Of a stretch of 64,000 nucleotides of DNA, positions 29,559 to 57,364 are shown piece after piece. The notes beneath the pieces are model-generated. The model saw nothing but the letters and a program-made list of their open reading frames with translations, was not told the DNA's origin and did not search any database. Each line of letters opens with the position of its first letter. The first letter of the stretch is position 1. A program made the translations under genes and the position numbers. This DNA comes from an uncultured Acidobacteriota bacterium. GTDB lineage: Bacteria > Acidobacteriota > Terriglobia > Bryobacterales > Bryobacteraceae. Location: assembly GCA_902826685.1 (NCBI GenBank), contig CADEFT010000012.1, positions 104,979-168,978 on the forward strand, in the 5' to 3' direction.

Positions 29559-29590
29559 AAGCGGCTGGAAGCCTATTATTTTTCATATAT

Positions 29591-29620
29591 TTGACTCGCC
29601 GCCCGCTTCGATGGTATCAA
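29591..29620 (+). promoter_or_regulatory. Candidate sigma70-type promoter for the second TonB-like receptor gene
   Basis: TTGACT (29591-29596), 18-nt spacer, TATCAA (29615-29620). It lies in an AT-richer 140-nt divergent intergenic region about 78 nt upstream of ATG 29698. An AGGAG Shine-Dalgarno sits 7 nt before the ATG. Confidence 0.3.
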
Positions 29621-44872: not shown

Positions 44873-44938
44873 ACCAACCGTGGTTGCGCTAAACTTCACC
44901 GTACGGCTGCCGATCTAGCTGAGGTGGAAGTAGAATCG

Positions 44939-46093
44939 ATGTCGATTCCTGAAGATGCCGGGTACGGTTCCCCCGGCGGCGCAAACGAGGACTTTGCAGT
45001 CCTCAAGGGCCGGTTTCTGGCGGTCCTCAATCACGAAATCCGGACGCCGCTCAGCGGCATCATGGGCATGACCGATCTGCTTCTCGAGACGGCACTCGAC
45101 GACGAGCAGCGCGAGTACGTGACGGCCGCCCGCTCCTGCGCCGAGACGTTGTTTGACGTGTTGAACGCCACGCTGGACTATTCGGCGCTCACCACCGGAC
45201 GCGTCGCGCTCGAACAGGGCGAGTTTCACCTGGTGGAAGTCATCACCGCAGCGCTCGCCGAGCACAAGTTTCAGGCCGAATCGAAAGGGCTCGACCTGCG
45301 GTGGCGGTTTGAGGGCCGCGTGCCGGAGACGATTGTCGGCGATGCGTTGCGGCTGCGGCAGGTTCTTTCCCACCTGGTGTCAAACGCCGTGAAGTTCACC
45401 AACGCGGGCGAGGTAGAGCTAGTGGCCGCCGTCGTATCGCGCCAGCCTCTATCGGCATGTCTGGAGTTCCGTGTGCGCGATACCGGCATCGGCATTCCAC
45501 CGTCGCAGCTGGACCACATCTTCGACTCTTTCCGCCAGGTGGATAGCGGCCTGGCGCGGCGCTACAACGGGCTGGGATTGGGCCTGGCGCTGGCCGAGAA
45601 GCTCACCCATCTGATGGGCGGCCAGATTCGCGCCGAAAGTACCCCGGGCGAGGGAACGATCTTTTTCACCCGCATCGAGTTTCCGCTGCCGGAAGATGCC
45701 GGCGAGACGGCATCGGCGGCCGCCGCGGCGGGCAAGCGCATCCTGCTGGTGGAAGACAACGAAGTGGCGCAGCGCATTTTCACGCACATCCTGCGGCGGG
45801 GGAATTATGCGGTGGATTGCGCCGCCAGCGGCGATTCGGCCCTGGAATCGGCGGTGCACAACGAATACGACCTGGTGCTGATGGATCTGCAGATGCCGGG
45901 CCTGGACGGTATCGAGACGACGAAAGCGCTGCGCGGGATGCCGCGTTACCGGAAGACGCCCATCGTGGCGCTGACCGCCAATTCCGCCGACGAGCACCGG
46001 CGGATGTGTCTGGAAGTCGGAATGCAAGGCTTCCTGCTCAAGCCCGTGCCGTCGGACGAGTTGCTGGCCACGGTCGCGCGCTGTTTGAGTTGA
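44939..46093 (+). CDS. Hybrid sensor histidine kinase/response regulator lacking a recognisable input domain
   Basis: ATG 44939 is preferred (GAGGTGGA about 10 nt upstream) over GTG 44924. H-box LNHEIRTPL, N-box SNAVKFT, G1 DTGIGI, G2 GLGLGL. The REC domain has LMDLQMPGLDG and LLKP. Only about 25 residues precede the DHp domain. Confidence 0.85.
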   Translation: MSIPEDAGYGSPGGANEDFAVLKGRFLAVLNHEIRTPLSGIMGMTDLLLETALDDEQREYVTAARSCAETLFDVLNATLDYSALTTGRVALEQGEFHLVEVITAALAEHKFQAESKGLDLRWRFEGRVPETIVGDALRLRQVLSHLVSNAVKFTNAGEVELVAAVVSRQPLSACLEFRVRDTGIGIPPSQLDHIFDSFRQVDSGLARRYNGLGLGLALAEKLTHLMGGQIRAESTPGEGTIFFTRIEFPLPEDAGETASAAAAAGKRILLVEDNEVAQRIFTHILRRGNYAVDCAASGDSALESAVHNEYDLVLMDLQMPGLDGIETTKALRGMPRYRKTPIVALTANSADEHRRMCLEVGMQGFLLKPVPSDELLATVARCLS

Positions 46094-46166: not shown

Positions 46167-46727
46167 CTAGAGGCCGGAACACTGATCTTCTTTGTTTCCG
46201 GCCCTGTTGCCGCCACCGGCCGGAGCCGGCGTATTCTCCTTGCACTGCATGTTCTGCCGGATCGTGTTGCTGGTGATGCTTGCGCCACCGGTGTTCTTGA
46301 ACAACTGGAAGTCGCTTCCGATGAACGCGCCGTTCGCAAAGAGGTGACCGGAGTTCTCCACATACTGGAAACTGCCGTGAATGGTCGTGCCCCGCTGGAT
46401 GGCGCTGGCCTGATAGTTGTATTTGATCTGGACGTTGCCTCCCACCGTTACGCTGGGACCGACGATGCGCACGTAGGCGCCGCCGTCTTCGCTCTGAACG
46501 TTGCCGTTGATGAACGTACGGCCTGAGATCGTCAGCCCGCCGCTCCGTTGCACATAGACGCTGCCGTTCAGCCGCGCGTCGCGAAGATCGCAGGTCGCCC
46601 CCTGCGGGACAACCACGTTGTCATGCGATCCGGTAAGGGTTCCCGTGCAGCGGGTCTCCTCGGCGAAAAGACCCACCGGTAGCGCCAAAATCGCGGCGAC
46701 AGTGAAAGCTGCCATATTTCGAGTCAT
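46167..46727 (-). CDS. Secreted beta-solenoid-like repeat protein (hypothetical)
   Basis: Start at MTRNMAAF (46727), preceded by AGGAGA. Signal peptide AAILALPVGLFA. About six repeats of 18-21 residues carry G-[NS]-[VF]-Q-like cores (NGSVYVQ, NGNVQSE, GGNVQIK, HGSFQYV, GSDFQLF, RQNMQCK). One Cys pair caps each end. Confidence 0.6.
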   Translation of the reverse strand: MTRNMAAFTVAAILALPVGLFAEETRCTGTLTGSHDNVVVPQGATCDLRDARLNGSVYVQRSGGLTISGRTFINGNVQSEDGGAYVRIVGPSVTVGGNVQIKYNYQASAIQRGTTIHGSFQYVENSGHLFANGAFIGSDFQLFKNTGGASITSNTIRQNMQCKENTPAPAGGGNRAGNKEDQCSGL

Positions 46728-46823
46728 GCTTTTTTCTCCTATTCCGAAGCCTTGCTGAATGCCCGGCCTCACTCGAATGGGGTTAGGAGCATGCCCGCGA
46801 AATATAGCCAGCGCCTTCCATCG

Positions 46824-48188
46824 TCAAAATTCCGTCGCTTTTCGAACGGCGCGATAGACGTCCAGCCGGCCATTGCCGAGATTGCCGGATACGGGAGCCG
46901 CTTCCTTGAGCCCATCCTCGGCCTTTTCCCAGTTCAAGGAGGGCTTCACCTGCAACATCAACGCGACGGTGCCGGATACCAGCGGCGCGCTAAACGACGT
47001 GCCCCAGGCGGCGGCATAGCGCCCGCCGGGGTATGCCGTAATGAGCGCCTCTCCGGGAGCGGCGAGAGTGACGAGGTTGTCGCCGTGATTGGTGAACGGG
47101 CTCTGGATGTCCGCCAGGTTTGTCGACGCCACGCCGATCACTTCCTTATAGCCGGCCGGATACACCATGGTCTCGGCGCCGTGGTTTCCGGCCGAGGCCA
47201 CGCAGATCACGCCGCGGCTTGCCACAAACTCGATCGCCCGCTGGAGTTCGGCGGAGGGCGCCTGCAAGCTGAGACTCATATTGATCACCTTGGCGCCATT
47301 CGCCTCGGCGTGGAAGATGGCGCGAAGAATGTGGAACACCGGAGCCTTGCCATCGCCGCCAAACGGTTTGAGCGGCATGATCATCGCCGTGGGAGCGGCG
47401 CGATGCACCAGGCCGGCCACCATGGTGCCGTGACCGAAATGCGGTGGCAGGCGCCGCGGATCGATGCGGCTGGCGGTGTTGCGATCGAGAATCGCGGTGG
47501 TGTAAGGGTTGGTCTCGCCCGCGGTGTCGAGAATCGCGGTGGTGTAAGGGCTGAGGATGGCTCTGGTCTCCGCATCGAGATCCTCCAGTTCCGAGGGCGC
47601 GCCGGCACGCTCGCGGATGAAGTCGTAACCGGGAACGAGCCAACGGCGCAGCAGCGGATGATTGGGATCGATTCCCGTATCGATGATGGCGACGACGCCG
47701 GATCCGGTTCCATACCTTGCGTGCGACAACGGCGTTCGAATTAACGCAAGCGCCGGTTGATTGACGTAGCCGGACCAGGCCGGATCGCCGCCGAACGTGG
47801 TGAAGCTGCGGTCGCCAAGCGCGCTGTTGACCGGCGCGGTGTTCGTGATCAACCGGCGCCCGCCGGGCGATGTCTCCGGCAACGAAACGACCACATTCAA
47901 TTCCACCAATACGTCGTCGTCGTCATCGTCGTCATCATCGTCGTCGCCGCCATGGTCGTAGTTCTTGAGCCGGCGGATCACCTCATCGGGCGGAATCCCC
48001 TCCGGCCCCTGAACCAGGTATATGTCCTGGCCCGGGATCTGCCTCAGGATCGCGAGGCCGAACCGGCTTGCCAGTTCCCGAAGGTAGGCGGCGGTGGTTC
48101 GCACGATGAACTGGTCGGCCGCAACAGCGGGCCTTCCCAGAGTAAAGACCAGTCCGATCAGAAGAAACAGTCGCGTCACGGTTGTCAT
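46824..48188 (-). CDS. Secreted subtilisin-like serine protease (peptidase S8) with I9-like propeptide
   Basis: Start at MTTVTRLFLLIGLVFTLGRPAVA (48188), with GGAGG upstream; its ATG overlaps the upstream TGA. The catalytic triad is intact: AIIDTGID (Asp), HGTMVAG (His), GTSFSAPLVSG (Ser). An 11-Asp run sits in the propeptide. Confidence 0.9.
   Translation of the reverse strand: MTTVTRLFLLIGLVFTLGRPAVAADQFIVRTTAAYLRELASRFGLAILRQIPGQDIYLVQGPEGIPPDEVIRRLKNYDHGGDDDDDDDDDDDVLVELNVVVSLPETSPGGRRLITNTAPVNSALGDRSFTTFGGDPAWSGYVNQPALALIRTPLSHARYGTGSGVVAIIDTGIDPNHPLLRRWLVPGYDFIRERAGAPSELEDLDAETRAILSPYTTAILDTAGETNPYTTAILDRNTASRIDPRRLPPHFGHGTMVAGLVHRAAPTAMIMPLKPFGGDGKAPVFHILRAIFHAEANGAKVINMSLSLQAPSAELQRAIEFVASRGVICVASAGNHGAETMVYPAGYKEVIGVASTNLADIQSPFTNHGDNLVTLAAPGEALITAYPGGRYAAAWGTSFSAPLVSGTVALMLQVKPSLNWEKAEDGLKEAAPVSGNLGNGRLDVYRAVRKATEF
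47485..47550 (-). repeat. Perfect 24-nt direct repeat (two copies, 42-nt period) inside the S8 protease gene
   Basis: tcgagaatcgcggtggtgtaaggg occurs at 47485-47508 and again at 47527-47550. It encodes PYTTAILD twice (SPYTTAILDTAGETNPYTTAILDRN). Confidence 0.9.
47913..47945 (-). repeat. Imperfect GAC/GAT trinucleotide tract encoding 11 consecutive Asp
   Basis: Reverse complement reads gac gac gat gat gac gac gat gac gac gac gac, giving DHGG-D11-VLVE in the S8 propeptide. Confidence 0.95.
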
Positions 48189-48829
48189 GATTTCCTCCCA
48201 AAACTCCGAGTTTGCCTCAGGCCGGTAACGGATCCGAGGGGAACTTCGATTTCGCGTCTTCCCGCACCATCCCTCACGCATAGACGGAGATTCGCCCGGG
48301 ATGGGGACTCCAGGTGAAACTCACCCGATTCGTTGGTAGATGTCTGCTGGATCACCTGGCGCCCGGACATCAAAAGCACTGGGAGCGCGGCCGTCCCCGC
48401 CGCTCCACGGGCCATGGAGATCTGGCCGGCGATCGCCACGGCGCGGCGGGGACCACTCCGATCGACCAGCAGTTCCACCGTGACGTCTTCGGCGCGGAAG
48501 GCAAGCCTGTGCGCGCCGCCACCGGCACTGCGAACACCCTCCAGAGCGAGGGCGGCCTCGCTGTCGGAGGTCAAGGCGGCGAGGACCTGGCGCCAGAGAG
48601 ATTCGCCGCCCTGCTGGCGCGGGACGAAGAGCCGCGCGGCGCGAGCGACGACGGCATCCGGCACGTCGACGTCGTGACGGGCCGTTTCGACAACATTTCG
48701 GAGCCGCGCCACAACGGGCGCGCAGGAGTCACACCCGCCGCCGAGGTGAGCTTCCATCTCCGACCGGTATGGCTCGGGCACTAGCCCCCTAACGAAGTCG
48801 GCCCAGCGTTCTATGGCGTAGTGGGTCAC
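48185..48829 (-). CDS. Soluble zinc-finger (zf-HC2-like) anti-sigma-like protein with C-terminal carboxypeptidase-regulatory-like beta-sandwich
   Basis: 214 aa. N-terminus WADFVRGL...EMEAHLGGGCDSCAPVV (H-x4-C-x2-C, close to the ZAS H-x3-C-x2-C motif). No hydrophobic TM segment. C-terminus AIAGQISMARG...LPVLLMSGRQVIQQTSTNESGEFHL. Confidence 0.65.
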   Translation of the reverse strand: MTHYAIERWADFVRGLVPEPYRSEMEAHLGGGCDSCAPVVARLRNVVETARHDVDVPDAVVARAARLFVPRQQGGESLWRQVLAALTSDSEAALALEGVRSAGGGAHRLAFRAEDVTVELLVDRSGPRRAVAIAGQISMARGAAGTAALPVLLMSGRQVIQQTSTNESGEFHLESPSRANLRLCVRDGAGRREIEVPLGSVTGLRQTRSFGRKS

Positions 48830-48842
48830 ATTCTTCTTCCCT

Positions 48843-51710
48843 TCATATGGGGTCGCCGGAACCGGCCGGAAATATATCCTGAAAAGTTCTTTGGGAGCGG
48901 CCGGTGACGGCGAACGGGGCCCAGTAGTAGGGGTGGGGGTACCGCTCGCGCGTTTCGAGCATCGCCTCCCGCAGGGCTTGGCAAACGCCGCGGCCGGAGC
49001 CGATCTTGCCGTAAAAGCGGCCCATGTATTCGGCCGTGCTGCGATCGTTCACTTCCCAGAGCGAGAGGTGGACGGTGTGCGCGCCCGCATGCAGCAGACC
49101 GCGCGCAAGCCCCATCACTTCGCCGGCTCCCACGGTTTCCTGCACGCCGGTCGCGCAGCCGCTTAGAGTAATCAGTTCCGCGGCGAAATCGAAGTCGTAC
49201 AAATCGAAGACGCAGAGCCGCGAGTCGCCCATGCGAATGGACGAAAACAAGGGGTTGTCCTGGCGGAAGATTCCATGTGTGGCCAGATGAATGAAGCGGC
49301 TTGTGGCGGCGGCGCGGCGAAGCGCCTCGGCCGTGGCGCTGGAGCCCGTCAGCAGGCGCGCCGGTTGAAGAAATCCCGCTACCGACTCGACTTCCCTGGC
49401 GATATCGGGCGCCCTCTCGTCGCTCACTCCAACCACGGTGGAATGGCCTGCCCAGGCGGGTTCCTTCTCCATGCAGAGCCGGTAAACCATCGCGCTGGGC
49501 GCGTATGAAACGGTCCGCCGGTCGATCACGTGGGCATCGCCATCGTGCATGGCATGGAATGGCAGCCGGTGCAGCGGCCCATGCGGAACCACCACCCAGT
49601 GCCCGTTGGGAAGCCAGGGATGGGCGGGCTCGATCAGCGCCCGGTACAGGCTTTCCAGATGCCCCCGTGTGGCGGCCAGCCAGGCCGGATCGCCGGAGGC
49701 GGGACCCGGGGAAGCGGAGAGATTCCGCGACATCTGAAAGCCGAGCAGGCGCCCGGTTCGCACCACTTCGTCAAGCGGGCCGAGCGGCACGTGGCGAATC
49801 TGAGTGGGTGTGACGACAAAGAGATGGAGCCGGCCACCGGCGGCGTAGTAATCGAGGAGGGCGGTTTCCTGGGGTAACACCGCCTGGATGCGGCTTGCTT
49901 GGGCTTCCCCCGTATCCGCGAGTGGAGCCTCGACGGCCCTTGCGGTTCGCGACGCCGTCAGCGCCGCCGCCAGCTCTTCCTCACACTGCACGATTCTTTC
50001 CCGCAAATCGCGCATCGGGCCGCTCTGCGGACTCCTCTTATCCGACTCCGCCCGGTCCAGTTGCCGGTAGTACCAGGCCAGCCGCCGGCGAACCGCCTGC
50101 AGCGCCTCCGTTTCGGCGAACCGCTCCCCCGTGGCGACGCTTCGCGCGCGGGTGCTCAACGTCATCGATTCGGCCAGGCTGCGGGACTTGGCGTGTTCAA
50201 CGTACTTCAACAGTTCCTCGACCGGAGTATGGACGGCACCGGTGACCGCCAGACGGACGAGATTCTCGTAGACAAGGTGCTTGTCCTCGAGAAATGCGAT
50301 TCTCAAGTCGCCATGGGGGATCTGGCCGCGCAGCACTTCGAGAATCCGGTGCGCTTCCCGGTAGGCGGCCGCCGCGGCATGGGGATCGCCTTCCGCCTCG
50401 GCCACCCGGCCGGAGGCGATGCAGAAGTGAAAACTCAGCGGGGCGGTTGCCGCGTTGTGAAGATAGGCGCGTGCCTGATCGCAATGCCGCCGCGCGCGGG
50501 AAGCGTCGTTGGCCAGCAACTCGATATTGGCCAGCAGGAGCGCACAGAGGATCGCTTTGCCCGGCAGCAGCGAAGCGTCCAGCGCGCGCAGGGCGCCGAG
50601 GGCGACTTCACGAGCCTTCCCGATCTGTCCCAGTTCGAGAAAAACGGCCGCGCGGTGGAAGTCGGCCGTCGCCTGCCAGGCGGAATTTTTTTCCCGGCCA
50701 AAGAGGGCGCGCGCCCGGTTGAGCACCGGCAGCACGTTGCCCGACTCGCCCGCTCGGAACGACGCCAGCCCCAGATTGACCAGCGACTTCGCCTGTTCGT
50801 AGCGCATCCCGAGTCCGGCGAACCGGCCGGCGGCGTCTCCGGCGAATCTGGCGGCCTCGGCATAGAGATTGAGTTCCAGGTAGAGATCGCTCTGGTCGAG
50901 CTTGGCGATGGCGGCGTGATAGGTGTTGCCGCGTTCCTCGACGTCGGAGCGCCGGTACAGCCCAACGGCTTGAGCGTATTCCCCGCGCAGGTAATAGAGA
51001 TTGGCGATGTTGTCGTTCACTTCCGCCATAAGAAGTGTGAGTCCCTGGTCCCGGTAGAAAAGACGGGCCTCTTGGTAGGCCTGAAGGGCGCGATCGAAGT
51101 CGTGAACGGCCGCATGACACACGGCCATGTTGCGCATGGCGATGGCGGCGGACGGGTAATCGCCGTTCTCCTTCAAGCCGGCGATCGCTCGCTGATAGAG
51201 TTCGAGCGCTTCCTCATGACGATCCCGGCGGTGGAGGATGTTTCCGATATTGCTGTCCAGACGCGCCAGGCGGAGGCTATCGCCCTCCCGTTGAAAGATC
51301 TCCCTGGCGCGCTCCGCCCATTCAAGCGCTTCCTCGTAGCGGCCGAGATAAATCAGCGTCTGGAGGGCGCTGCTCCGCGTGCGGCCGGCATCGACATGCT
51401 CGCCGAGCCGGTCCAGGATGCGGAGAGCCTTGCGGTAGGCGCCGGCCGCGCGGCGATAGTTGCCGGTCAGATACGAGACGTGGCCTCGCATCCTCAGGGC
51501 CTCGGCATAGGCACGCCGGTCGGGCAGTTGGCGGGCCACGGTGTGGGCCGCGTCGGCGTACCGCGCAGCCGTGCCGATATCCACATGCATTCGGGCGCTC
51601 ACTTCGGCGCACAGCCGGCGAGCCAGTTCCACGGTCACCGCCGAAGGAAAATCGAGGAGCAGTTGCCTGCGTGCCGCTTCGTCCTTGGCTGACACAAGTT
51701 GGGACTCCAT
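48843..51710 (-). CDS. Cytoplasmic TPR-repeat protein with C-terminal CHAT (caspase-like) protease domain
   Basis: Start at MESQLVSAKDE (51710), 2 nt after the sigma stop. The longer ORF extension overlaps the sigma gene. About 550 residues of TPR-like repeats, then a CHAT domain with candidate catalytic His (FIHLATHG) and Cys (ITLSGCATG). No signal peptide. Confidence 0.85.
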   Translation of the reverse strand: MESQLVSAKDEAARRQLLLDFPSAVTVELARRLCAEVSARMHVDIGTAARYADAAHTVARQLPDRRAYAEALRMRGHVSYLTGNYRRAAGAYRKALRILDRLGEHVDAGRTRSSALQTLIYLGRYEEALEWAERAREIFQREGDSLRLARLDSNIGNILHRRDRHEEALELYQRAIAGLKENGDYPSAAIAMRNMAVCHAAVHDFDRALQAYQEARLFYRDQGLTLLMAEVNDNIANLYYLRGEYAQAVGLYRRSDVEERGNTYHAAIAKLDQSDLYLELNLYAEAARFAGDAAGRFAGLGMRYEQAKSLVNLGLASFRAGESGNVLPVLNRARALFGREKNSAWQATADFHRAAVFLELGQIGKAREVALGALRALDASLLPGKAILCALLLANIELLANDASRARRHCDQARAYLHNAATAPLSFHFCIASGRVAEAEGDPHAAAAAYREAHRILEVLRGQIPHGDLRIAFLEDKHLVYENLVRLAVTGAVHTPVEELLKYVEHAKSRSLAESMTLSTRARSVATGERFAETEALQAVRRRLAWYYRQLDRAESDKRSPQSGPMRDLRERIVQCEEELAAALTASRTARAVEAPLADTGEAQASRIQAVLPQETALLDYYAAGGRLHLFVVTPTQIRHVPLGPLDEVVRTGRLLGFQMSRNLSASPGPASGDPAWLAATRGHLESLYRALIEPAHPWLPNGHWVVVPHGPLHRLPFHAMHDGDAHVIDRRTVSYAPSAMVYRLCMEKEPAWAGHSTVVGVSDERAPDIAREVESVAGFLQPARLLTGSSATAEALRRAAATSRFIHLATHGIFRQDNPLFSSIRMGDSRLCVFDLYDFDFAAELITLSGCATGVQETVGAGEVMGLARGLLHAGAHTVHLSLWEVNDRSTAEYMGRFYGKIGSGRGVCQALREAMLETRERYPHPYYWAPFAVTGRSQRTFQDIFPAGSGDPI

Positions 51711-51712
51711 CG

Positions 51713-52312
51713 TCACATCCCCAGATCCTGGAGTTCTTGCGCGAGCTTCTTCAGGCAGCGGGCGCGGATAAACCCGATGGAGCCGGTGGCAAGACCGAGT
51801 TCCTTCGCCACTTCCTCGTAAGGCCGGGGCGACTCCTCGAAAAACAGCATCCGGATCATTTCGCGGCACCTCGGCTGCAAGCGCGTCATGGCTTCCCGCA
51901 CCGTTTGCTGCCGCTCCAGTTCGTCGAGCCATTCCGGCAGCACCTGCAGGGCGGCCCCCCCTTGGTCCGGCTGGTCGAGGTTGGCGGCCTCGAAGCGGCC
52001 CAGCCTTTGCTTGGTGTGAAAACACTTGTTGGCGGCGACTCGGACCAGCCATCCGCGCAGCGCCTCAACGTTCCGGAGCCGATCGAGTTCCTTGAACAGA
52101 TCGACGCACACGGCCTGAAAAACGTCGGCCGCTTCGTCGGCCGGGAAGCGATACCGGAGCGGCACCGAGTAGATCAGCTTTTTGTACTTTTCGATCAGCG
52201 CTTCCCACGCCCGTTCGTCGCCCTGCAGGCAGGACGCCACCAGATCGCGATCTTCCCACGCCGGCGATGGCCCGGAGCGGTCCACGGGTACGGACTTGGC
52301 TGGCCCGCTCAT
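51713..52312 (-). CDS. ECF-type RNA polymerase sigma-70 family factor
   Basis: Start at MSGPAKS (52312); its ATG overlaps the TGA of the upstream binding-protein gene. Region 2 (AWEALIEKYKKLIYSVPLRY...DVFQAVCVDLFK...WLVRVAANKC) and region 4 (REMIRMLFFEESPRPYEEVAKELGLATGSIGFIRARCLKKL). Confidence 0.9.
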   Translation of the reverse strand: MSGPAKSVPVDRSGPSPAWEDRDLVASCLQGDERAWEALIEKYKKLIYSVPLRYRFPADEAADVFQAVCVDLFKELDRLRNVEALRGWLVRVAANKCFHTKQRLGRFEAANLDQPDQGGAALQVLPEWLDELERQQTVREAMTRLQPRCREMIRMLFFEESPRPYEEVAKELGLATGSIGFIRARCLKKLAQELQDLGM

Positions 52313-54030
52313 GGGCGGGGCGCCTGGTTGCCGGCGTGAGACCAAAAGATCTCGTCGGCATTCCACAGAACGGGGTGGCCGATGGCGCCCGGCCGCAGAT
52401 TCCCCAAGGCCTCGCGCGCCGCCACCAGGACGTTCGGGCTGGCGAGGGGGATGAAAGGCAGTTGGCCGGCGAGGATTCGCTGCACCTGGTCGAAGTCGCT
52501 CTTGCGTTGCGCGGCGCCGGTCGTGCCGATCTGACGCCTCATCAGGCCGTCGATTTCGCCTTCCCAGGCGAAAACGGGCTTGCCGCTCATGTTCCACAAC
52601 CGCGTGCTTCCCGCCGACATCAGCACGTTCATGTCGGCCACCGGATCCGCTTCGCCGGGCCGCAGCGCCATGACCGCGGCGTCGAAGTCCCTCCGGTTGG
52701 TCACTCGATCCACCAGGCTCCGGAACTCCAGCGGAACCACTTGAACCTTGATGCCGAGCGGCTTCAAATCCTCCTCGATGATGGCCGCCGTCTGTGTATA
52801 GACGGGATTAGCGGCGTTGGCGACGATCGTGAATTCGACGGCCACCGCGTTCTCGTCGACCAGGAGGCCGCGCGAATCCCAGCGGAAACCGGCGCGGCGG
52901 AGCAGCTCGCGAGACCGGCTGGCCGATCCCGGCGGTCTGGGCAGCGATTCATCCATCCAGTGCCCCCGGGCCGGCGTTACGTGTCCCCACAGCGGAGTCG
53001 CCCGTCCCCGGTAGACCAGCTTCACGATGGCCTGCCGGTCGATGGCCGCTGAAATCGCCTGCCGGAACGCCTGCCGCTGAAACCATTTCCGTGGCGCCGC
53101 CGCGGTTTCGGGCGCCGGATTGAGATTGAAAAGCAGGAAGGTATAGTCGAGCCCGGCACCGAGGTCGAGAACCCGATGCTTCATCCGCTCCCCCGCGCGG
53201 GTCAGGACTGAATAGCTGCCCGGGCCGAAGCCCGCAACCAGATCGGCTTCGCCGGCGGTGAAGCGGGCGGTCATCGCGTCCTCGTTGGCCGCGAAGACGA
53301 ACTCCACTTCGTCCAGGTAAGGCAGCGGGCGGCCCGCGGGATCCCTTTTCGAGTAGTGCGGGTTGCGCTCCAGCACGATCCGCTCACCCGGTTGAATCGA
53401 TTTCAAACGAAAAGGGCCCGCGCCGGCGATCCCGGCACTGGCCGTTCCGAGGCCCCAGGTGGCGGCGAGCCTGCCTCCGCGATAGGCTTCGGCGAGGTGT
53501 TTCGCGGGAAGAATCGAGATCCCGGCCAGCATCTTCTCGCCCAGCGCGTACGGCTCGGCTAGCGTGAATCGCAACTCATCCGGCCCGGCAAGGGCCACCT
53601 GAACCGGTTGTCCACCCACGGTGAGAAGTTCCCGTTGAGGCGACGCGGTCTTGGGGTTGATATGAACGTCGAACGTAAACAGAACGTCGCCGGCGGTCAA
53701 TGGACTGCCGTCTGAAAATTTCAGACCCCTTCGCAGCCGCACCGTGATCTCACGGCCATCGGTACTGGTCTTCCACGATTCGGCCAGAACACCTTCGGTG
53801 GCGAGAGACTTCGGGTTGAGGCGGACCAGCGGAGCGCCCATCAGCCCGGTGACGGCGCGCGAGGGCTCATCTATGGCAAAGACTGGATTGAGCGTCTTGG
53901 GCTCGGAACGCTGCGCGACGACCAAGCGTCCGCCGGAGGTGGCGGGAACCGGTTGCGACGCGGCTGCAACGAAAACAACGGTGAGGAAAACAGCAGGGGT
54001 GGTACGGGCTGGAAGGCCAAAAAAATTCAT
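52309..54030 (-). CDS. ABC transporter substrate-binding protein, family 5 (peptide/nickel type)
   Basis: 573 aa. Signal peptide. Motifs RLVVAQRSEPKTLNPV, LKFSDGSPLTAGDV and ERNPHY, typical of SBP_bac_5. Confidence 0.85.
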   Translation of the reverse strand: MNFFGLPARTTPAVFLTVVFVAAASQPVPATSGGRLVVAQRSEPKTLNPVFAIDEPSRAVTGLMGAPLVRLNPKSLATEGVLAESWKTSTDGREITVRLRRGLKFSDGSPLTAGDVLFTFDVHINPKTASPQRELLTVGGQPVQVALAGPDELRFTLAEPYALGEKMLAGISILPAKHLAEAYRGGRLAATWGLGTASAGIAGAGPFRLKSIQPGERIVLERNPHYSKRDPAGRPLPYLDEVEFVFAANEDAMTARFTAGEADLVAGFGPGSYSVLTRAGERMKHRVLDLGAGLDYTFLLFNLNPAPETAAAPRKWFQRQAFRQAISAAIDRQAIVKLVYRGRATPLWGHVTPARGHWMDESLPRPPGSASRSRELLRRAGFRWDSRGLLVDENAVAVEFTIVANAANPVYTQTAAIIEEDLKPLGIKVQVVPLEFRSLVDRVTNRRDFDAAVMALRPGEADPVADMNVLMSAGSTRLWNMSGKPVFAWEGEIDGLMRRQIGTTGAAQRKSDFDQVQRILAGQLPFIPLASPNVLVAAREALGNLRPGAIGHPVLWNADEIFWSHAGNQAPRP

Positions 54031-54040
54031 CTGGCGGAAC

Positions 54041-54988
54041 CTACGGCGCCGGCATTCCGATCCTTAACCCCCTCGCTAATTCATTGTAACAACCAAAGAC
54101 CAGCGCGAACCCGGCCGCCGGTAACGTCATCCACCAGTAGCTCTCCAGTACTTCGATCTGGCTGAGCGAGGCAAGCAGCGATCCCCAACTGGGAACGGAG
54201 CCGCCGAGGCCCAGGCCGAGAAACGACAGCGATGCCTCCGCCAACACATACTGCGGTATGGCGAGGCTCAGATAGGTAGCCAGCGTGGGAATCGTGGCGG
54301 GCGCGATGTGATGCCAGATCAGGTAGGAGTCCGGGGCGCCGAAACCGCGCGCAGCCAGGACGAACTCACGCTCCTTGGCGGAAAGAACGATCCCGCGCAC
54401 CAGCCGCGCCGGCCGCGCCCACCCGATCGCCCCAAGCAGGGCGAGCAGCGCCAGGAACAGCGTCCGCGGATCGGCGTTCAGGGGGAAAAAGGCGCGCATC
54501 GCCAACAGCAGATACATCCACGGAAGCGCCAGGAACAGCTCCGCCGCCCGCATCGTCAGACGATCGGCCCGGCCCCCATAGAATCCGGCGGCGAGTCCCA
54601 GTCCGGCCCCTAGGATCGCCGACAGCAGGGCGGCGGCGAGGCCCGAGAACAGCGACGTCCGGGCCCCATAAATCCAGCGCGAAAACTGGTCCCGGCCGAG
54701 ACCGTCGGTGCCCATCAGGAAGACCTTGCCGGGCTCGCCGGCGCCAAACAGCCGCCGCCCGTCGTGGCCGCGAGGAAAGAGCTTCACCGGATACCTGGTG
54801 AGCGCGCCGCCATCGTCCCGGCCGTAGGCGACCAGCCGCAGGCCCTCGATCCGCAGGGGCGTAGGCGGGGCCCACTGGTGTTGGCGATGTTGCCGCGTGG
54901 GATCATAGGGCGCAACGAAGCCGGCCATCGCCGCCAGGACATGAAGCACAAGCAAGGCAATCAGGCTGGCCCGCGCGGCAATTCTCAC
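54041..54988 (-). CDS. ABC transporter permease (DppC/OppC-like)
   Basis: 315 aa. Multiple TM helices. Motifs LMGTDGLGRDQFSRWIYGARTSL and the EAA-like loop VLSAKEREFVLAARGFGA. Confidence 0.85.
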   Translation of the reverse strand: MRIAARASLIALLVLHVLAAMAGFVAPYDPTRQHRQHQWAPPTPLRIEGLRLVAYGRDDGGALTRYPVKLFPRGHDGRRLFGAGEPGKVFLMGTDGLGRDQFSRWIYGARTSLFSGLAAALLSAILGAGLGLAAGFYGGRADRLTMRAAELFLALPWMYLLLAMRAFFPLNADPRTLFLALLALLGAIGWARPARLVRGIVLSAKEREFVLAARGFGAPDSYLIWHHIAPATIPTLATYLSLAIPQYVLAEASLSFLGLGLGGSVPSWGSLLASLSQIEVLESYWWMTLPAAGFALVFGCYNELARGLRIGMPAP

Positions 54989-55905
54989 GCCGCCTCCCGC
55001 CGGATGCGAGGATCGGCGGCGTAGAGCAGCAGATCGGCAACCAGATTCCCCACCAGCAGCAGAATCGCCGATAGCATGACCGCGGCCAGAACCACATGCA
55101 CGTCGCGGCCGAGTATGGCTTCGAGCAGCAAGGGGCCAAGACCAGGCCAGTTCAGTACGACTTCCACGATGAGCGTCGAACTCGTCATCGAGGCCAGCGA
55201 CAAGCCGAACAGCCCGATGAGAGGATTGGCGGCGGCCGGCAAGGCGTGCCCGAAGAGAATCCGCCGCGCCGGGATGCCATGCGCCCGCAGGTGGCCGATG
55301 AAAGGCGAACGCAGGATCTCATGGAGGCTGGTGCGCACGTGCCGGAAGACGGCCGGGAAAGAAACCATGGTCATCGCCGCGATGGCCAGCGGCAGACTCC
55401 CGCTCACCTCAATGAAGCCGGTGCGGACGGCGAACAACAGGCAGGCAAGGGCGACGAGAAGATCCGGGAGAGAGGCCAACAGGGACGCAAACGCGCTCAC
55501 CGGCCTGTCGATCCAGCCCCGCTCGCGCGCGGCCGACCACACACCCAGCGGTACCGCCAGAAGCCAGGTGAGCGCTAAAGAAAAACCGGCCAGGAGCAGC
55601 GTGTTGCCCACGCGCCTCCATAGAATCCGGGAGACGGGCATGTTGTAGGCGAACGACAGTCCCAGGTCGCCGCGAAGAGTCGAGCCCAGCCAGTGCACGT
55701 AGCGAGGGACCAGAGCGCGGTCCAGACCATATTGCTTGCGGAAAGCTTCAGCCGTTTCGGGAGGAATCTGGGGATTGACGCGCATCTCGTCAAGATAGTC
55801 GCCCGGCGCCAGTTCGAACATGGCGAAAGAGAGAATGGACACGCCGAACAGAAGCAGCGCTCCGTGCCACAGGCGGCCGAGCAGGAACGGGAGGGGCACG
55901 GTCAA
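54985..55905 (-). CDS. ABC transporter permease (DppB/OppB-like)
   Basis: 306 aa. Motifs LPFLLGRLWHGALLLFGVSILSFAMFELAPGD and YGLDRALVPRYVHWL. 4-nt overlaps with both neighbours. Confidence 0.85.
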   Translation of the reverse strand: MTVPLPFLLGRLWHGALLLFGVSILSFAMFELAPGDYLDEMRVNPQIPPETAEAFRKQYGLDRALVPRYVHWLGSTLRGDLGLSFAYNMPVSRILWRRVGNTLLLAGFSLALTWLLAVPLGVWSAARERGWIDRPVSAFASLLASLPDLLVALACLLFAVRTGFIEVSGSLPLAIAAMTMVSFPAVFRHVRTSLHEILRSPFIGHLRAHGIPARRILFGHALPAAANPLIGLFGLSLASMTSSTLIVEVVLNWPGLGPLLLEAILGRDVHVVLAAVMLSAILLLVGNLVADLLLYAADPRIRREAA

Positions 55906-56651
55906 TTCCCCCGATCGGGCAGCATCGCGGCCAGCAGCGCGAGGCTGGCCGGATGCCTGGCGCCACTCGAAAAATCCGCCCCGGGAGATTGCTCCACCAC
56001 GCGGCCATTCTCCAAAACGACGACTCGACCGGCGGCCTGGAGCGCGGCGGCCATGTCGTGTGTGACATAGACGAGGCCGAGCGCACGCTGCCGTTGGATC
56101 CGGCCGAGCAGCGAGGTGATCCGTTGCTGGTTCGCCGGGTCGAGGCCCGTCAGCGGTTCGTCGAGAATCAACACCTGAACGCCGGGTACGGCAAGCGCTC
56201 TGGCGATGGCGACGCGCTGCCGCTGGCCGCCGCTCAGTTGGTCCGGCCGCCGGTCAAGCAAGTCCGTATCCAGCCCGGCGTCGTCCATGATCTGGCGCAC
56301 GCGGCCGGTGAGCGCCGCTCCCGTTACCCCTCGCAATCGAAGAGGCTCGCCGATGAGATCGAGTACCGTCCATCGCGGGTTGAGCGCGGTTGGGGAATCC
56401 TGAAACACGAGTTGGACGCCCGGCACTGCCCACAACTCCCCCTCAGTCAACGGCTCGAGACCCGCCAGGCAGCGGGCGAGTGTGCTCTTCCCCGCGCCCG
56501 AACGGCCCACGATGGCGACGGTTTCCCCGGCGCGGATCTCGAAATCGACAGGACCGAGCGCCCGGTACGATGTGGTCCGGCCGAAGCCGGCACGGACGTC
56601 CTGGTAGACTTTCCCCGCGCCAGCGGCCTTCAACAGCACCGGTTCCATCAA
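55902..56651 (-). CDS. ABC transporter ATP-binding protein (DppF-like, short form)
   Basis: 249 aa. Walker A GRSGAGKST, signature LSGGQRQRVAIARAL, Walker B VLILDEP. Confidence 0.9.
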   Translation of the reverse strand: MMEPVLLKAAGAGKVYQDVRAGFGRTTSYRALGPVDFEIRAGETVAIVGRSGAGKSTLARCLAGLEPLTEGELWAVPGVQLVFQDSPTALNPRWTVLDLIGEPLRLRGVTGAALTGRVRQIMDDAGLDTDLLDRRPDQLSGGQRQRVAIARALAVPGVQVLILDEPLTGLDPANQQRITSLLGRIQRQRALGLVYVTHDMAAALQAAGRVVVLENGRVVEQSPGADFSSGARHPASLALLAAMLPDRGN

Positions 56652-57364
56652 TCGATCAACCTCCCGTCGCGCAGTTCCAGGACGCGTCCGGTCAGAAAGG
56701 ACAGGGCGGCACGATTGTGGCTGAAAAGGAGAATCGACGTGCCTGTCCGTTCCCGCAGTTGCCGCAGGAGTTGGAGTATTTCGTACTGAGTGACCGAGTC
56801 CAAAGTGGAGGTGGGTTCATCGGCGATCAACAGTTTCGGCGAGCAGCAGATCGCCTGGGCGATCACGGCGCGCTGGCGCTGACCGCCGCTCAGTTGATGG
56901 GGATAGGACCGCGCCACCCGCTCCGCCTCGCGGCCGAACAGATCATGAAGGGAAGCTCTCGCGGCTCGCCTCGCCTCGCTCCAGGTATGGGTCCGATGGG
57001 CATACAGGACCTCGGCGACCTGGACCTCGACGGTCCGAACGGGATTCAAGGCCACGGACGGTTCCTGGGGAACCATTCCGATCCGCGCTCCGCGAATCTT
57101 TCGACGCTGGGCCTCCGGTGCTTGAAAGAAGTCCTGGCCCTCGAACAGCATCGTTCCAGTAGTTTCGGTTTGCGCCGGCGGAAGAAGCCGCAAAAGGGCG
57201 CGGGCGAGCGTCGTCTTCCCTCCGCCCGATGGGCCGAAGACACCGACGGCTTCGCCTTCCTGCAGCGTGAGCTGCAACCGTTCGAGCACGGGCGTGCGCC
57301 CGGTCCCCTGCAACCGGTACGCCACGCACAGTTGGTTCACTTCGAGCAGGCAGGAGGAGCCCAT
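56648..57364 (-). CDS. ABC transporter ATP-binding protein (DppD-like, short form)
   Basis: 238 aa. Walker A GPSGGGKTT, signature LSGGQRQRAVIAQAI, Walker B LLIADEPTS. Confidence 0.9.
   Translation of the reverse strand: MGSSCLLEVNQLCVAYRLQGTGRTPVLERLQLTLQEGEAVGVFGPSGGGKTTLARALLRLLPPAQTETTGTMLFEGQDFFQAPEAQRRKIRGARIGMVPQEPSVALNPVRTVEVQVAEVLYAHRTHTWSEARRAARASLHDLFGREAERVARSYPHQLSGGQRQRAVIAQAICCSPKLLIADEPTSTLDSVTQYEILQLLRQLRERTGTSILLFSHNRAALSFLTGRVLELRDGRLID

Follow-up and report, generated by a model that had tools for sequence, protein, structure and literature searches.

The genes for an ECF sigma factor, a cytoplasmic TPR-CHAT protein, a soluble anti-sigma-like protein and a secreted S8 subtilase form a conserved module in Acidobacteriota, and we tentatively propose that it is a two-unit switch in which the CHAT protease would cut the anti-sigma factor to free the sigma factor, a reading that we consider almost as apt to be right as wrong. 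One unit, translationally coupled, would comprise a peptide/nickel-type ABC importer, the sigma factor and the cytoplasmic TPR-CHAT protease. The other would be expressed from its own motif, TATATTT-N15/16-ACYCY, and would comprise a soluble ZAS-type anti-sigma factor with a beta-sandwich C-terminal domain and the secreted S8 subtilase; a second copy of the motif in the window genome would add a secreted beta-helix protein. Here, the window is the whole 64,000-nucleotide stretch of DNA that was analysed, and its relevant features are as follows:

56648-57364 and 55902-56651, minus strand: two ABC ATPase genes, NikD/E-, Opp- or Cnt-like (Pfam ABC_tran 3.6e-30 and 3.3e-26)
54985-55905 and 54041-54988, minus strand: two BPD_transp_1 permease genes with overlapping ends (Pfam, NCBIfam)
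52309-54030, minus strand: periplasmic substrate-binding protein SBP_bac_5 with a signal-like N-terminus (Pfam 3.8e-75, hydropathy)
51713-52312, minus strand: ECF (group IV) sigma factor, 199 aa (Sigma70_r2, Sigma70_r4, TIGR02937)
48843-51710, minus strand: predicted cytoplasmic TPR-CHAT caspase-fold protease, 955 aa (Pfam)
48849-48876, minus strand: motif TATATTT-N16-ACCCC, copy 1, 40 nt upstream of the anti-sigma GTG and within the 3' end of the CHAT ORF
48185-48829, minus strand: soluble ZAS-type anti-sigma-like protein, 214 aa, GTG start (alignments, profile match to RslA, AF2 model)
46824-48188, minus strand: secreted S8 subtilase, 454 aa (Peptidase_S8, PF00082, 1.4e-38)
46779-46806, minus strand: motif TATATTT-N16-ACCCC, copy 2, 72 nt upstream of the 186-aa gene
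46167-46727, minus strand: secreted 186-aa all-beta protein (AF2, fold search)

The sequence-only reading had described five co-directional, closely packed genes, and this arrangement is real: all five minus-strand ORFs were found where it had placed them, and the boundaries were matched by an independent gene caller, which gave the same 199-, 955- and 214-aa products on identical metagenome contigs. Read from the sequence, the sigma TGA (51715-51713) lies 2 nt from the CHAT ATG at 51710, the CHAT TGA (48845-48843) lies 13 nt from the start of the 214-aa gene at 48829, the 214-aa and S8 genes are joined by an ATGA overlap (48188-48185), and the S8 TGA (46826-46824) is followed after 96 nt by the ATG of the 186-aa gene at 46727. 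Two details required correction. The 214-aa gene starts with GTG rather than ATG, and the cassette does not end at 52312: there, the sigma start codon and the TGA of the upstream SBP_bac_5 gene, part of the ABC importer operon, overlap as ATGA (52312-52309, also read from the sequence). The source of the window is a soil Acidobacteriota genome.

The predicted identities of the ECF sigma factor, cytoplasmic TPR-CHAT protein, soluble ZAS-like anti-sigma factor and secreted S8 protease were borne out by HMM searches, residue checks and hydropathy. The sigma factor has the sigma2 and sigma4 regions (Sigma70_r2, 2.3e-9, residues 39-103; Sigma70_r4, 8.3e-6, residues 141-190) without sigma3 and sigma1.1, in the ~200 aa expected of the ECF family, and it matches TIGR02937 (2.2e-22) with 79.4 bits versus a cut-off of 42.9. 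Its closest solved structures are the ECF sigmas SigH, RpoE and SigL, its orthologues are ~50% identical, and hydropathy gave no signal peptide or TM segment. The permeases encoded upstream belong to a peptide/nickel/opine-type ABC importer according to Pfam and NCBIfam, and the substrate class may accordingly be peptide, nickel or opine. The related loci L001, L006-L008 and L013 have permease orthologues (47-50% identity) at the corresponding place. The ATPase genes, whose best NCBIfam matches fall under cut-off, stand upstream in L001 and L029 as in the window, but not in L006-L008 or the P0230 contig; L028 has no importer. The stop codon of the SBP gene runs into the sigma start codon or directly adjoins it in the window, in L001 and L029 and on the P0230 contig. 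That several lineages couple the sigma factor translationally to a peptide/nickel-type ABC importer is new here.

The TPR-CHAT protein consists of TPR repeats at approximately residues 40-560 (TPR_12, 4e-34), a region weakly similar to RapF (E=0.003), and a CHAT domain at residues 685-937 (PF12770, 3.1e-52). The catalytic pair nominated from the sequence is present, with His812 (codon 49275-49277) in H[IL]ATHG and Cys852 (codon 49155-49157) in LSGC[GAS]TG, and both residues are invariant in 15/15 orthologues, which retain an intact dyad at ~40% identity. Neither a signal peptide nor a TM segment was found by hydropathy. The sigma and CHAT genes are separated by -4 to 16 nt in each of the seven contexts for which genes were called, the window being included by sequence.

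The N-terminal domain of the 214-aa protein is helical and holds H3, H28, C33 and C36, spaced H3-x24-H28-x4-C33-x2-C36, with x3 in some relatives. H28, C33 and C36 do not vary among 60 diverse family members, and H3 is kept in at least 90% of them; by alignment the site follows the ZAS pattern H/C-x23-26-H-x3-C-x2-C, the corresponding spacer in the window protein being x4. The description of this protein as zf-HC2-like held only for the family: the window protein itself has no Pfam or NCBIfam match even at E<10, and zf-HC2 (PF13490) is matched by 13/60 relatives, with CarboxypepD_reg matched by 4/60. The top PDB sequence match of the family profile is RslA (3hug_B), aligned on the zinc motif with a weak E=0.02, and the top fold match of the AF2 model is the soluble ZAS anti-sigma factor ChrR (2q1z_B), also weak (5e-3). 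As the sequence-only reading had it, there is no TM helix, and no signal peptide, by hydropathy. In the AF2 model, a low-confidence linker (residues 67-104) with invariant L86, D89, S90, G98 and R100 leads to a CarboxypepD_reg-like beta-sandwich (residues 106-197). From the ZAS motif and the adjacency to the sigma gene, we infer that the 214-aa protein would bind the neighbouring sigma factor and keep it inactive; adjacency is the basis for pairing the two as cognates, and the anti-sigma gene has an ECF sigma gene nearby in 8/11 sampled contexts.

The neighbourhood fared well when traced through relatives, which were Acidobacteriota or Terriglobia. The order sigma-CHAT-antisigma-S8 is kept across distant Acidobacteriota (~30-50% identity) and was seen in eight of 11 contexts, which had been selected for long contigs or for fusion. 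In each of the metagenome loci (10/10) the CHAT gene is upstream, and the S8 gene is downstream in those whose sequence permits a call (8/8). The most conserved pairing is that of the anti-sigma and S8 genes (10/11 sampled contexts), which also occur as a pair with no adjacent sigma or CHAT gene in P0167, P0169 and P0050. The invariant linker residues of the anti-sigma factor are present in these loci as well and are therefore not CHAT-specific. In P0062 and P0094, the anti-sigma factor, a hydrophobic segment and S8 are joined in natural fusions, the former found on two contigs from two samples and the latter in a sigma-CHAT context. These anti-sigma-S8 fusions are new here; they retain an AxA-type signal-peptidase site and might be split again into two proteins.

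A bipartite motif, TATATTT-N15/16-ACYCY, lies upstream of the anti-sigma gene in every locus read and is likewise new here. Its spacing is fixed at 15-16 nt and its spacer sequences differ between lineages; in the 64 kb of the window, TATATTT occurs three times versus 0.63 expected. No canonical sigma-70 promoter was found at the motif sites. TATATTT could alternatively serve the housekeeping sigma as a -10 element. As no copy is found upstream of the sigma gene, the usual ECF autoregulation is not seen, and the CHAT gene also has no motif of its own. The 186-aa protein is a lineage-specific cargo, and its gene has the second copy of the motif upstream. The sequence-only reading had counted this protein as a cassette member and called it a beta-solenoid. 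Membership was not upheld, no syntenic or other homologue being found in the related loci examined, and the fold assignment drew weak support: the protein has no Pfam match, and its single-sequence AF2 model (pLDDT 62) gave beta-helix-type fold matches that were non-significant. From this model, it is probably a beta-helix.

In the mechanism that we propose, a cytoplasmic cue, maybe an imported ligand, would act at the TPR array to activate the CHAT dyad, and CHAT would then cut the anti-sigma factor, most likely in the interdomain linker, by analogy with Csx29 and Csx30. The motif architecture and distribution suggest that the freed sigma factor would fire the motif promoters to yield S8 and cargo as output, and that new anti-sigma factor made from the same class of promoter would provide negative feedback.

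A protease/anti-sigma sigma switch of this kind is not unprecedented, and the module is a variant of known logic; the statement that no characterised example was known is corrected by Csx29/Csx30/CASP-sigma, CalpL/CalpT/CalpS and DdvA. In the type III-E craspase, the TPR-CHAT protein Csx29 cleaves Csx30, which relieves inhibition of the ECF-like CASP-sigma (PMC10028731). The window resembles it in placing a cytoplasmic TPR-CHAT protein beside a soluble sigma inhibitor, and by this analogy cleavage of the anti-sigma factor by CHAT is plausible. However, cleavage is shown in craspase, where the protease is Cas7-11-bound and target-RNA-activated and Csx30 is not ZAS, whereas the window lacks both cas genes and a CRISPR array, and its CHAT protein scores 32.5 bits against the Csx29 NCBIfam model NF041237 (4.2e-8; cut-off 300). 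The release of a sigma factor by TPR-CHAT cleavage of its inhibitor is so far demonstrated only in CRISPR-linked systems. CalpL, as cited in bioRxiv 10.1101/2023.06.23.546230, cleaves the anti-sigma factor CalpT to release CalpS in a type III CRISPR system. According to that citation, the system shares with the window a fully cytoplasmic protease, a soluble anti-sigma factor and an ECF-type sigma, but CalpL is a cyclic oligoadenylate-activated, CRISPR-linked Lon-SAVED enzyme rather than a TPR-CHAT protein. In Myxococcus xanthus DdvA/DdvS, DdvA is a ZAS-TM-TPR-CHAT anti-sigma factor controlling an ECF sigma (PMC11506125), so that a ZAS domain is functionally joined to a TPR-CHAT region with a conserved His/Cys dyad. 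There, a single TM polypeptide with a periplasmic dimeric TPR-CHAT region undergoes RseP-dependent intramembrane proteolysis and the regulon is a CBASS/CRISPR island; in the window, the ZAS and TPR-CHAT parts are separate soluble cytoplasmic proteins, neither with a TM segment or signal peptide, and the output is a subtilase. The 214-aa protein shares an N-terminal helical zinc domain with an H...H-x3/4-C-x2-C site with ChrR/SigE, RsrA/SigR and RslA/SigL, and with ChrR also a second, all-beta C-terminal domain and the lack of a TM helix. It differs from ChrR in that its C-terminal domain is an Ig/CarboxypepD_reg-like sandwich and not a cupin, and from all three in that its proposed inactivation is proteolytic, not oxidative.

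ECF54, as summarised in a review (PMC8999054, after Huang et al. 2015 and Casas-Pastor et al. 2021), has conserved CHAT, subtilase and carboxypeptidase(-regulatory) neighbours, and proteolytic regulation has been proposed for it. It is an actinobacterial group, reported to lie near a 4Fe-4S protein and to have no recognisable anti-sigma factor. The window has all three neighbour domains, conserved, with CarboxypepD_reg matched by some 214-aa relatives, and is likened to ECF54 by this neighbour content. It differs in belonging to Acidobacteriota, in its cryptic ZAS anti-sigma domain and in its coupling to an ABC importer. The sequence-only reading had held that an ECF group already described with a CHAT partner would count against its proposal, and ECF54 is such a group in part. 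In the reading that the review puts forward for ECF54, the target of CHAT and/or S8 might be the sigma factor, or the TPR array might bind sigma directly, leaving the 214-aa protein as an accessory or target rather than the anti-sigma factor. The tight sigma-CHAT pairing and the separate promoter-like motif of the 214-aa gene agree with this, but the conserved H/H/C/C site and the RslA and ChrR matches point to an anti-sigma factor, and a secreted S8 cannot reach a cytoplasmic sigma; we regard this explanation as improbable. Less probable again is that the ZAS zinc/thiol site senses redox or electrophile stress as in RsrA and ChrR, the other genes being merely co-expressed or part of the regulon. 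The conserved ligands, the ChrR-like soluble two-domain architecture and the antisigma-S8 pairs lacking CHAT all suit such a sensor, yet the conserved position of CHAT between the sigma and anti-sigma genes, with an intact dyad in ~40%-identical orthologues, would be unusual for a mere target, and CHAT does not carry the motif that marks other putative targets.

We give still less weight to a split or fused trans-envelope anti-sigma factor, in which S8 would serve outside the cytoplasm as sensor or site-1-like protease and CHAT would supply only a later step in the cytoplasm, or with the anti-sigma factor monitoring export of the S8 precursor. This would account for the near-constant antisigma-S8 adjacency, the natural fusions through a hydrophobic segment and the ATGA coupling in the window. 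However, the 214-aa protein of the window has no TM segment, and a periplasmic S8 therefore cannot reach it; the fusions may be processed at their signal-peptidase site, and S8 relatives carry adhesin-like Big, cadherin or PA domains, as in secreted output enzymes. A conflict, abortive-infection or programmed-death system with CHAT as effector, also raised by the sequence-only reading, is very improbable, despite the role of CHAT proteases in CRISPR type III-E, III-B and CBASS-linked defence and the slight Csx29 similarity, which is far under its cut-off. PADLOC gave no system-specific match, only generic TPR and subtilase/IetS-fragment matches, and nothing for the sigma factor, the anti-sigma factor or the 186-aa protein; the 64 kb hold no CRISPR array or tandem repeats; and the neighbours are all non-cas, comprising housekeeping genes (sucCD, trpD and a BamB-like gene). 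This reading is weaker because no defence-system model was matched and the neighbours are housekeeping genes, and stable synteny with a nutrient-type ABC importer also argues against it.

A more specific form of the CHAT-cleavage mechanism, unlikely as a whole, is a non-CRISPR, importer-fed caspase switch. An imported peptide or metal-ligand would bind the TPR array in the way that peptides bind RRNPP receptors, CHAT would cut the ZAS anti-sigma factor, and the sigma factor would fire the TATATTT-N15/16-ACYCY promoters, whose products would be the subtilase, secreted cargo specific to the lineage and a new supply of anti-sigma factor; the module's own subtilase might make the peptide outside the cell. 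The likeness to RRNPP systems is by analogy only and lies in the joint encoding of an SBP_bac_5-type importer, a cytoplasmic TPR protein and a secreted protease; the window module lacks an HTH or phosphatase output, and no gene for a pro-peptide was identified in it. If true, this would be a self-amplifying, self-limiting protein/peptide-sensing circuit that is widespread in Acidobacteriota.

The S8 subtilase has the predicted triad in subtilisin order (D170, H253 and S398), with N335 as the oxyanion residue. Its signal peptide was also supported, by an N-terminal signal-like segment of the kind that hydropathy shows in the SBP and the 186-aa protein; a propeptide-like region that includes a poly-Asp run from residue 82 is present, and Inhibitor_I9, which had been suggested, was not detected by HMM search. 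The catalytic Asp and His are separated by an insertion of ~55 aa (codons 47607-47433), at which the PDB alignment breaks (residues 193/252); it is made up of short '..T.AILD'-type repeats that are found in all orthologues.

The five genes of the cassette picked out by the sequence-only reading are present, co-directional on the minus strand, and their coordinates were borne out when ORFs and junctions were read, apart from minor corrections and a boundary that lies further upstream. The sigma TGA (51715-51713) is followed after a 2-nt gap by the CHAT ATG at 51710; the CHAT TGA (48845-48843) is followed after 13 nt by the gene for the 214-aa protein, whose start codon at 48829 is GTG, not the ATG initially assigned; this gene and the S8 gene are joined by an ATGA overlap (48188-48185); and the S8 TGA (46826-46824) lies 96 nt from the ATG of the gene for the 186-aa protein (46727). 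A different gene caller yielded the same 199-, 955- and 214-aa products on identical metagenome contigs. HMM searches recovered the expected domains in three of the five proteins, namely an ECF sigma factor with r2 and r4 (TIGR02937, 79 bits against a cut-off of 43), a 955-aa protein with TPR_12 repeats and a CHAT domain (3.1e-52) and a 454-aa S8 subtilase (1.4e-38), whereas the 214- and 186-aa proteins gave no Pfam or NCBIfam match even at E<10. Hydropathy places the sigma, the CHAT protein and the 214-aa protein in the cytoplasm, in agreement with the claim that CHAT lacks a signal peptide, and finds N-terminal signal-like segments in the S8 protease, as had been proposed, in the substrate-binding protein (SBP) encoded upstream and in the 186-aa protein.

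The sigma gene had been taken as the edge of the cassette, but its start codon and the stop codon of an SBP_bac_5 gene overlap (ATGA, 52312-52309), with two permease and two ATPase genes further upstream. Together these encode an ABC importer of the peptide/nickel/opine transporter family, for which every NCBIfam model scores below its cut-off. The order permease-permease-SBP-sigma recurs in related loci L001, L006-L008, L013 and L029 and on the contig of P0230, a representative of the 214-aa protein's family; in L016 and L017 only the SBP gene is seen upstream of sigma, where the contig ends. Several of the loci with an importer share the SBP/sigma overlap, and the importer is absent from L028. 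Its attachment to the sigma-CHAT cassette is a new finding.

Conservation of the neighbourhood was examined in 11 synteny contexts, comprising family members chosen by the length of their contigs, independently of context, and two fusion proteins. The order sigma, TPR-CHAT, anti-sigma, S8 is kept in 8 of the 11, and the anti-sigma gene precedes, or is fused to, an S8 gene in 10. A single peptide pattern, taken from a six-sequence alignment, located 2 genome loci and 17 metagenome loci, one of the latter being the L001 contig again; because the scan relied on one pattern, the resulting locus counts are biased towards it. Among these 16 new metagenome and 2 genome loci, CHAT lies upstream in 10/10 metagenome loci with enough sequence and S8 lies downstream in 8/8. 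Relative to the window proteins, identity is approximately 50% for sigma, 47% for the SBP and 40% for both CHAT and S8, falling to 30% for the anti-sigma. The two fusions, P0062 and P0094, each join an anti-sigma, a hydrophobic segment and an S8 protease. As P0062 follows a TPR-CHAT gene and recurs unchanged on contigs of two different samples, and P0094 lies within a sigma-CHAT context, both are real genes and not frameshift artefacts. In the contexts of P0167 and P0169 (locus L005, 5027-8568), 'orphan' antisigma(-S8) genes stand without a sigma or CHAT gene but keep the TATATTT motif described below; they diverge from genes for two large proteins (~540-590 aa) with multiple CarboxypepD_reg domains, and gidB and parAB lie nearby.

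The module is common, and the family of the 214-aa protein is large and unannotated: an exhaustive profile search gave 4407 cluster representatives (clusters at 50% identity) at E<=1e-3, of which 563 reach E<=1e-30. All members with a source name are 'hypothetical' and come from Acidobacteriota or Terriglobia; a plasmid tblastn search with the anti-sigma gave no match. H28, C33 and C36 are shared by all 60 diverse members compared, and H3 by nearly all; together they form the H...H-x3/4-C-x2-C signature that marks zinc-binding anti-sigma (ZAS) domains. The best PDB match of the family profile, although weak (E=0.02), is the ZAS anti-sigma RslA (3hug_B), aligned on this same motif. In an AF2 model (pLDDT 70) a helical N-domain is joined to a beta-sandwich (residues 106-197) by a linker of low confidence (residues 67-104); its closest fold match (E=5e-3) is the soluble, two-domain ZAS anti-sigma ChrR. 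When members were scanned singly, 13/60 matched zf-HC2 (best 5e-7) and 4/60 matched CarboxypepD_reg; the C-terminal domain is a CarboxypepD_reg-like sandwich. Since motif, PDB, fold and individual-member matches agree, the description 'zf-HC2-like, no TM' holds for the family, although the 214-aa protein itself has no Pfam match. Linker residues D89, S90, G98 and R100 were considered as a CHAT-specific cleavage site and rejected as such; because they are equally conserved in members without an adjacent CHAT, they stay a mere candidate.

Both proteases retain their catalytic residues. His812 (H[IL]ATHG) and Cys852 (LSGC[GAS]TG) of CHAT are invariant in 15/15 orthologues at an overall identity of only ~40%, and the predicted dyad is intact; the S8 triad is likewise complete (D170, H253, S398). 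A phmmer search of PDB with the CHAT protein matched only TPR proteins, which leaves Pfam/NCBIfam matches and the literature as the basis for comparing it with Csx29, DdvA and separase. Every S8 linked to the 214-aa family carries an insertion of ~55 residues between the catalytic Asp and His:

47433-47609 (minus strand), S8 residues 194-252: insertion made of 8-residue repeats

The insertion, seen also in the S8 genes of L001, L006, L014, L021 and L026-L028 and in both fusions, consists of 2-5 copies of (D/N)Q(S/A)Txx(I/L)L, as in 'DQATVSILDQATVSILD' (units include DQSTAAIL and YTTAILD), and its possible roles include those of a structured lid, a unit that binds calcium or a pseudo-substrate. 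The window S8 also has a run of 11 aspartates (GGDDDDDDDDDDDV) in its propeptide-like region (47900-47950, minus strand, residues 82-92). In relatives (the P0230 contig, L016, L006 and L026) the S8 partner is often much enlarged: one has cadherin/Big_9 repeats and is 2013 aa long, Big_7, PPC or PA domains occur in others, and sometimes a second S8 gene follows. These enlarged partners suggest protease/adhesin outputs at the surface or outside the cell.

In independent lineages, the spacers between CHAT and anti-sigma share a promoter-like motif consisting of TATATTT, 15-16 non-conserved bases and AC(C/T)C(C/T), which is a new finding. It occurs in every locus read, including L005 and L026, which have no sigma or CHAT, and the fusion locus L030, and its TATATTT is usually the sole copy in ~20 kb. 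The 64-kb window contains three TATATTT against 0.63 expected, two of which form the full motif on the coding strand:

48876-48849 (minus strand): motif copy 40 nt before the anti-sigma GTG, within the tail of the CHAT ORF
46806-46779 (minus strand): motif copy 72 nt before the gene for the 186-aa protein

No canonical sigma-70 promoter was detected at these sites. A fixed spacing around a variable spacer is the architecture of ECF-type -35/-10 promoters; alternatively, the motif may be a -10 element plus a conserved leader. Allowing one mismatch, no copy precedes the sigma or ABC genes in the window, and the locus thus reads as two units: a translationally coupled importer-sigma-CHAT unit, and a motif-antisigma-S8 unit with the second motif copy predicted to drive the 186-aa gene in this genome. 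The remaining TATATTT at 29586 (plus strand) and a near-match at 29547 (minus strand) were rejected as motif copies, as they lie in an unrelated AT-rich divergent intergenic region (29520-29600) that has TATAATT on the opposite strand and no ACYCY half-site. Bipartite k-mer hits suggesting a shared promoter upstream of permease and S8 genes proved to be an artefact of the near-identical DNA of L006, L007 and L008 and of RBS-like words. At 1422 (minus strand) in L006, and at equivalent sites in L007 and L008, a near-match (CATATTT-N15-ACTCT) faces a divergent Glycos_transf_1 gene beside the permease genes, and in that lineage this gene may belong to the regulon as well; a glycosyltransferase is likewise the divergent neighbour on the P0230 contig.

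The sequence-only reading knew of no characterised example of such a system, yet several exist. By cleaving Csx30, the TPR-CHAT protease Csx29 relieves the ECF-like CASP-sigma of inhibition (PMC10028731); CalpS is released when CalpL cleaves the anti-sigma CalpT, according to work cited in bioRxiv 10.1101/2023.06.23.546230; and DdvA of M. xanthus, the anti-sigma for ECF sigma DdvS, joins a ZAS domain, a TM segment and a periplasmic TPR-CHAT (PMC11506125). The window module is not a craspase: its CHAT protein reaches 32.5 bits with the Csx29 model, whose cut-off is 300, and neither cas genes nor arrays are present. Nor is it of DdvA type, its ZAS and TPR-CHAT proteins being separate and soluble. 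Group ECF54 has conserved carboxypeptidase-, subtilase- and CHAT-domain neighbours, with proteolytic control proposed (PMC8999054), and is without a recognisable anti-sigma (Casas-Pastor et al. 2021). Compared by described neighbours, not by sigma sequence, the window has the same neighbour-domain set, but it belongs to another phylum, bears a Pfam-invisible but recognisable ZAS domain on its CarboxypepD_reg-type neighbour, and is set apart by its importer coupling and promoter motif. The module is an uncharacterised, widespread acidobacterial variant of a type of system already known, in which an ECF sigma/anti-sigma pair has a caspase-fold protease as its proposed controller.

The best-supported reading of this anatomy is a cytoplasmic proteolytic sigma switch, for which we infer the binding, cleavage, signal and promoter specificity. 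The ZAS protein would sequester sigma while the TPR-CHAT protease is made together with sigma and the importer; a cue at the TPR array would lead CHAT to cleave the ZAS protein, and freed sigma would then act at the promoters that carry the motif, with S8 and cargo as the output and a fresh supply of anti-sigma as the feedback. The earlier interpretation is partly supported: it stands in its anatomy and falls in its claims of no precedent and of beta-solenoid membership. Four rivals to the proteolytic switch remain. Three of them are that CHAT acts on or binds sigma directly, as proposed for ECF54; that the switch is a redox one at the ZAS site, with its conserved H/H/C/C residues, the proteases being no more than members of the regulon; and that anti-sigma and S8, which are fused through a hydrophobic segment in P0062 and P0094 and are separate genes in the window, form a split trans-envelope sensor. 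The fourth, a conflict or defence system, which the sequence-only reading had named as an alternative, is disfavoured, and we rejected it on a PADLOC scan in which no system model matched, the housekeeping gene context and the lack of CRISPR.

Acidobacteriota count among the most abundant bacteria of soils, and to our knowledge almost nothing is known of their gene regulation. If the proteolytic switch is correct, caspase-fold TPR-CHAT proteases would control ECF sigmas outside CRISPR immunity, and the puzzle of an ECF group without an anti-sigma but with proteases would be answered by a cryptic ZAS domain on the CarboxypepD_reg-type neighbour. A defined promoter motif would also be in hand, together with catalytic residues and a candidate substrate for the protease, which would open the system to direct tests and perhaps to use as an orthogonal, protease-gated sigma switch.

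The 186-aa protein, previously counted as a cassette member, has no homologue in any related locus examined and therefore falls outside the conserved cassette; its signal-like N-terminus agrees with the proposed secretion, while its beta-solenoid nature is weakly supported. A hybrid histidine kinase/response regulator gene (HisKA, HATPase_c, Response_reg; 44924-46093, plus strand) converges on the end of its gene, with no link to the cassette seen in relatives. Rfam gave no family match in 44-60 kb of the window. Directly upstream of the ABC ATPases, at 57428-59737 (minus strand), lies a gene for a 769-aa protein with an InlB B-repeat-like segment and the TIGR03437 'Solibacter uncharacterized C-terminal domain' (2e-43); given its 63-nt gap from the ATPases it may or may not be part of the operon, and it hints at a Bryobacterales/Solibacter-like host.
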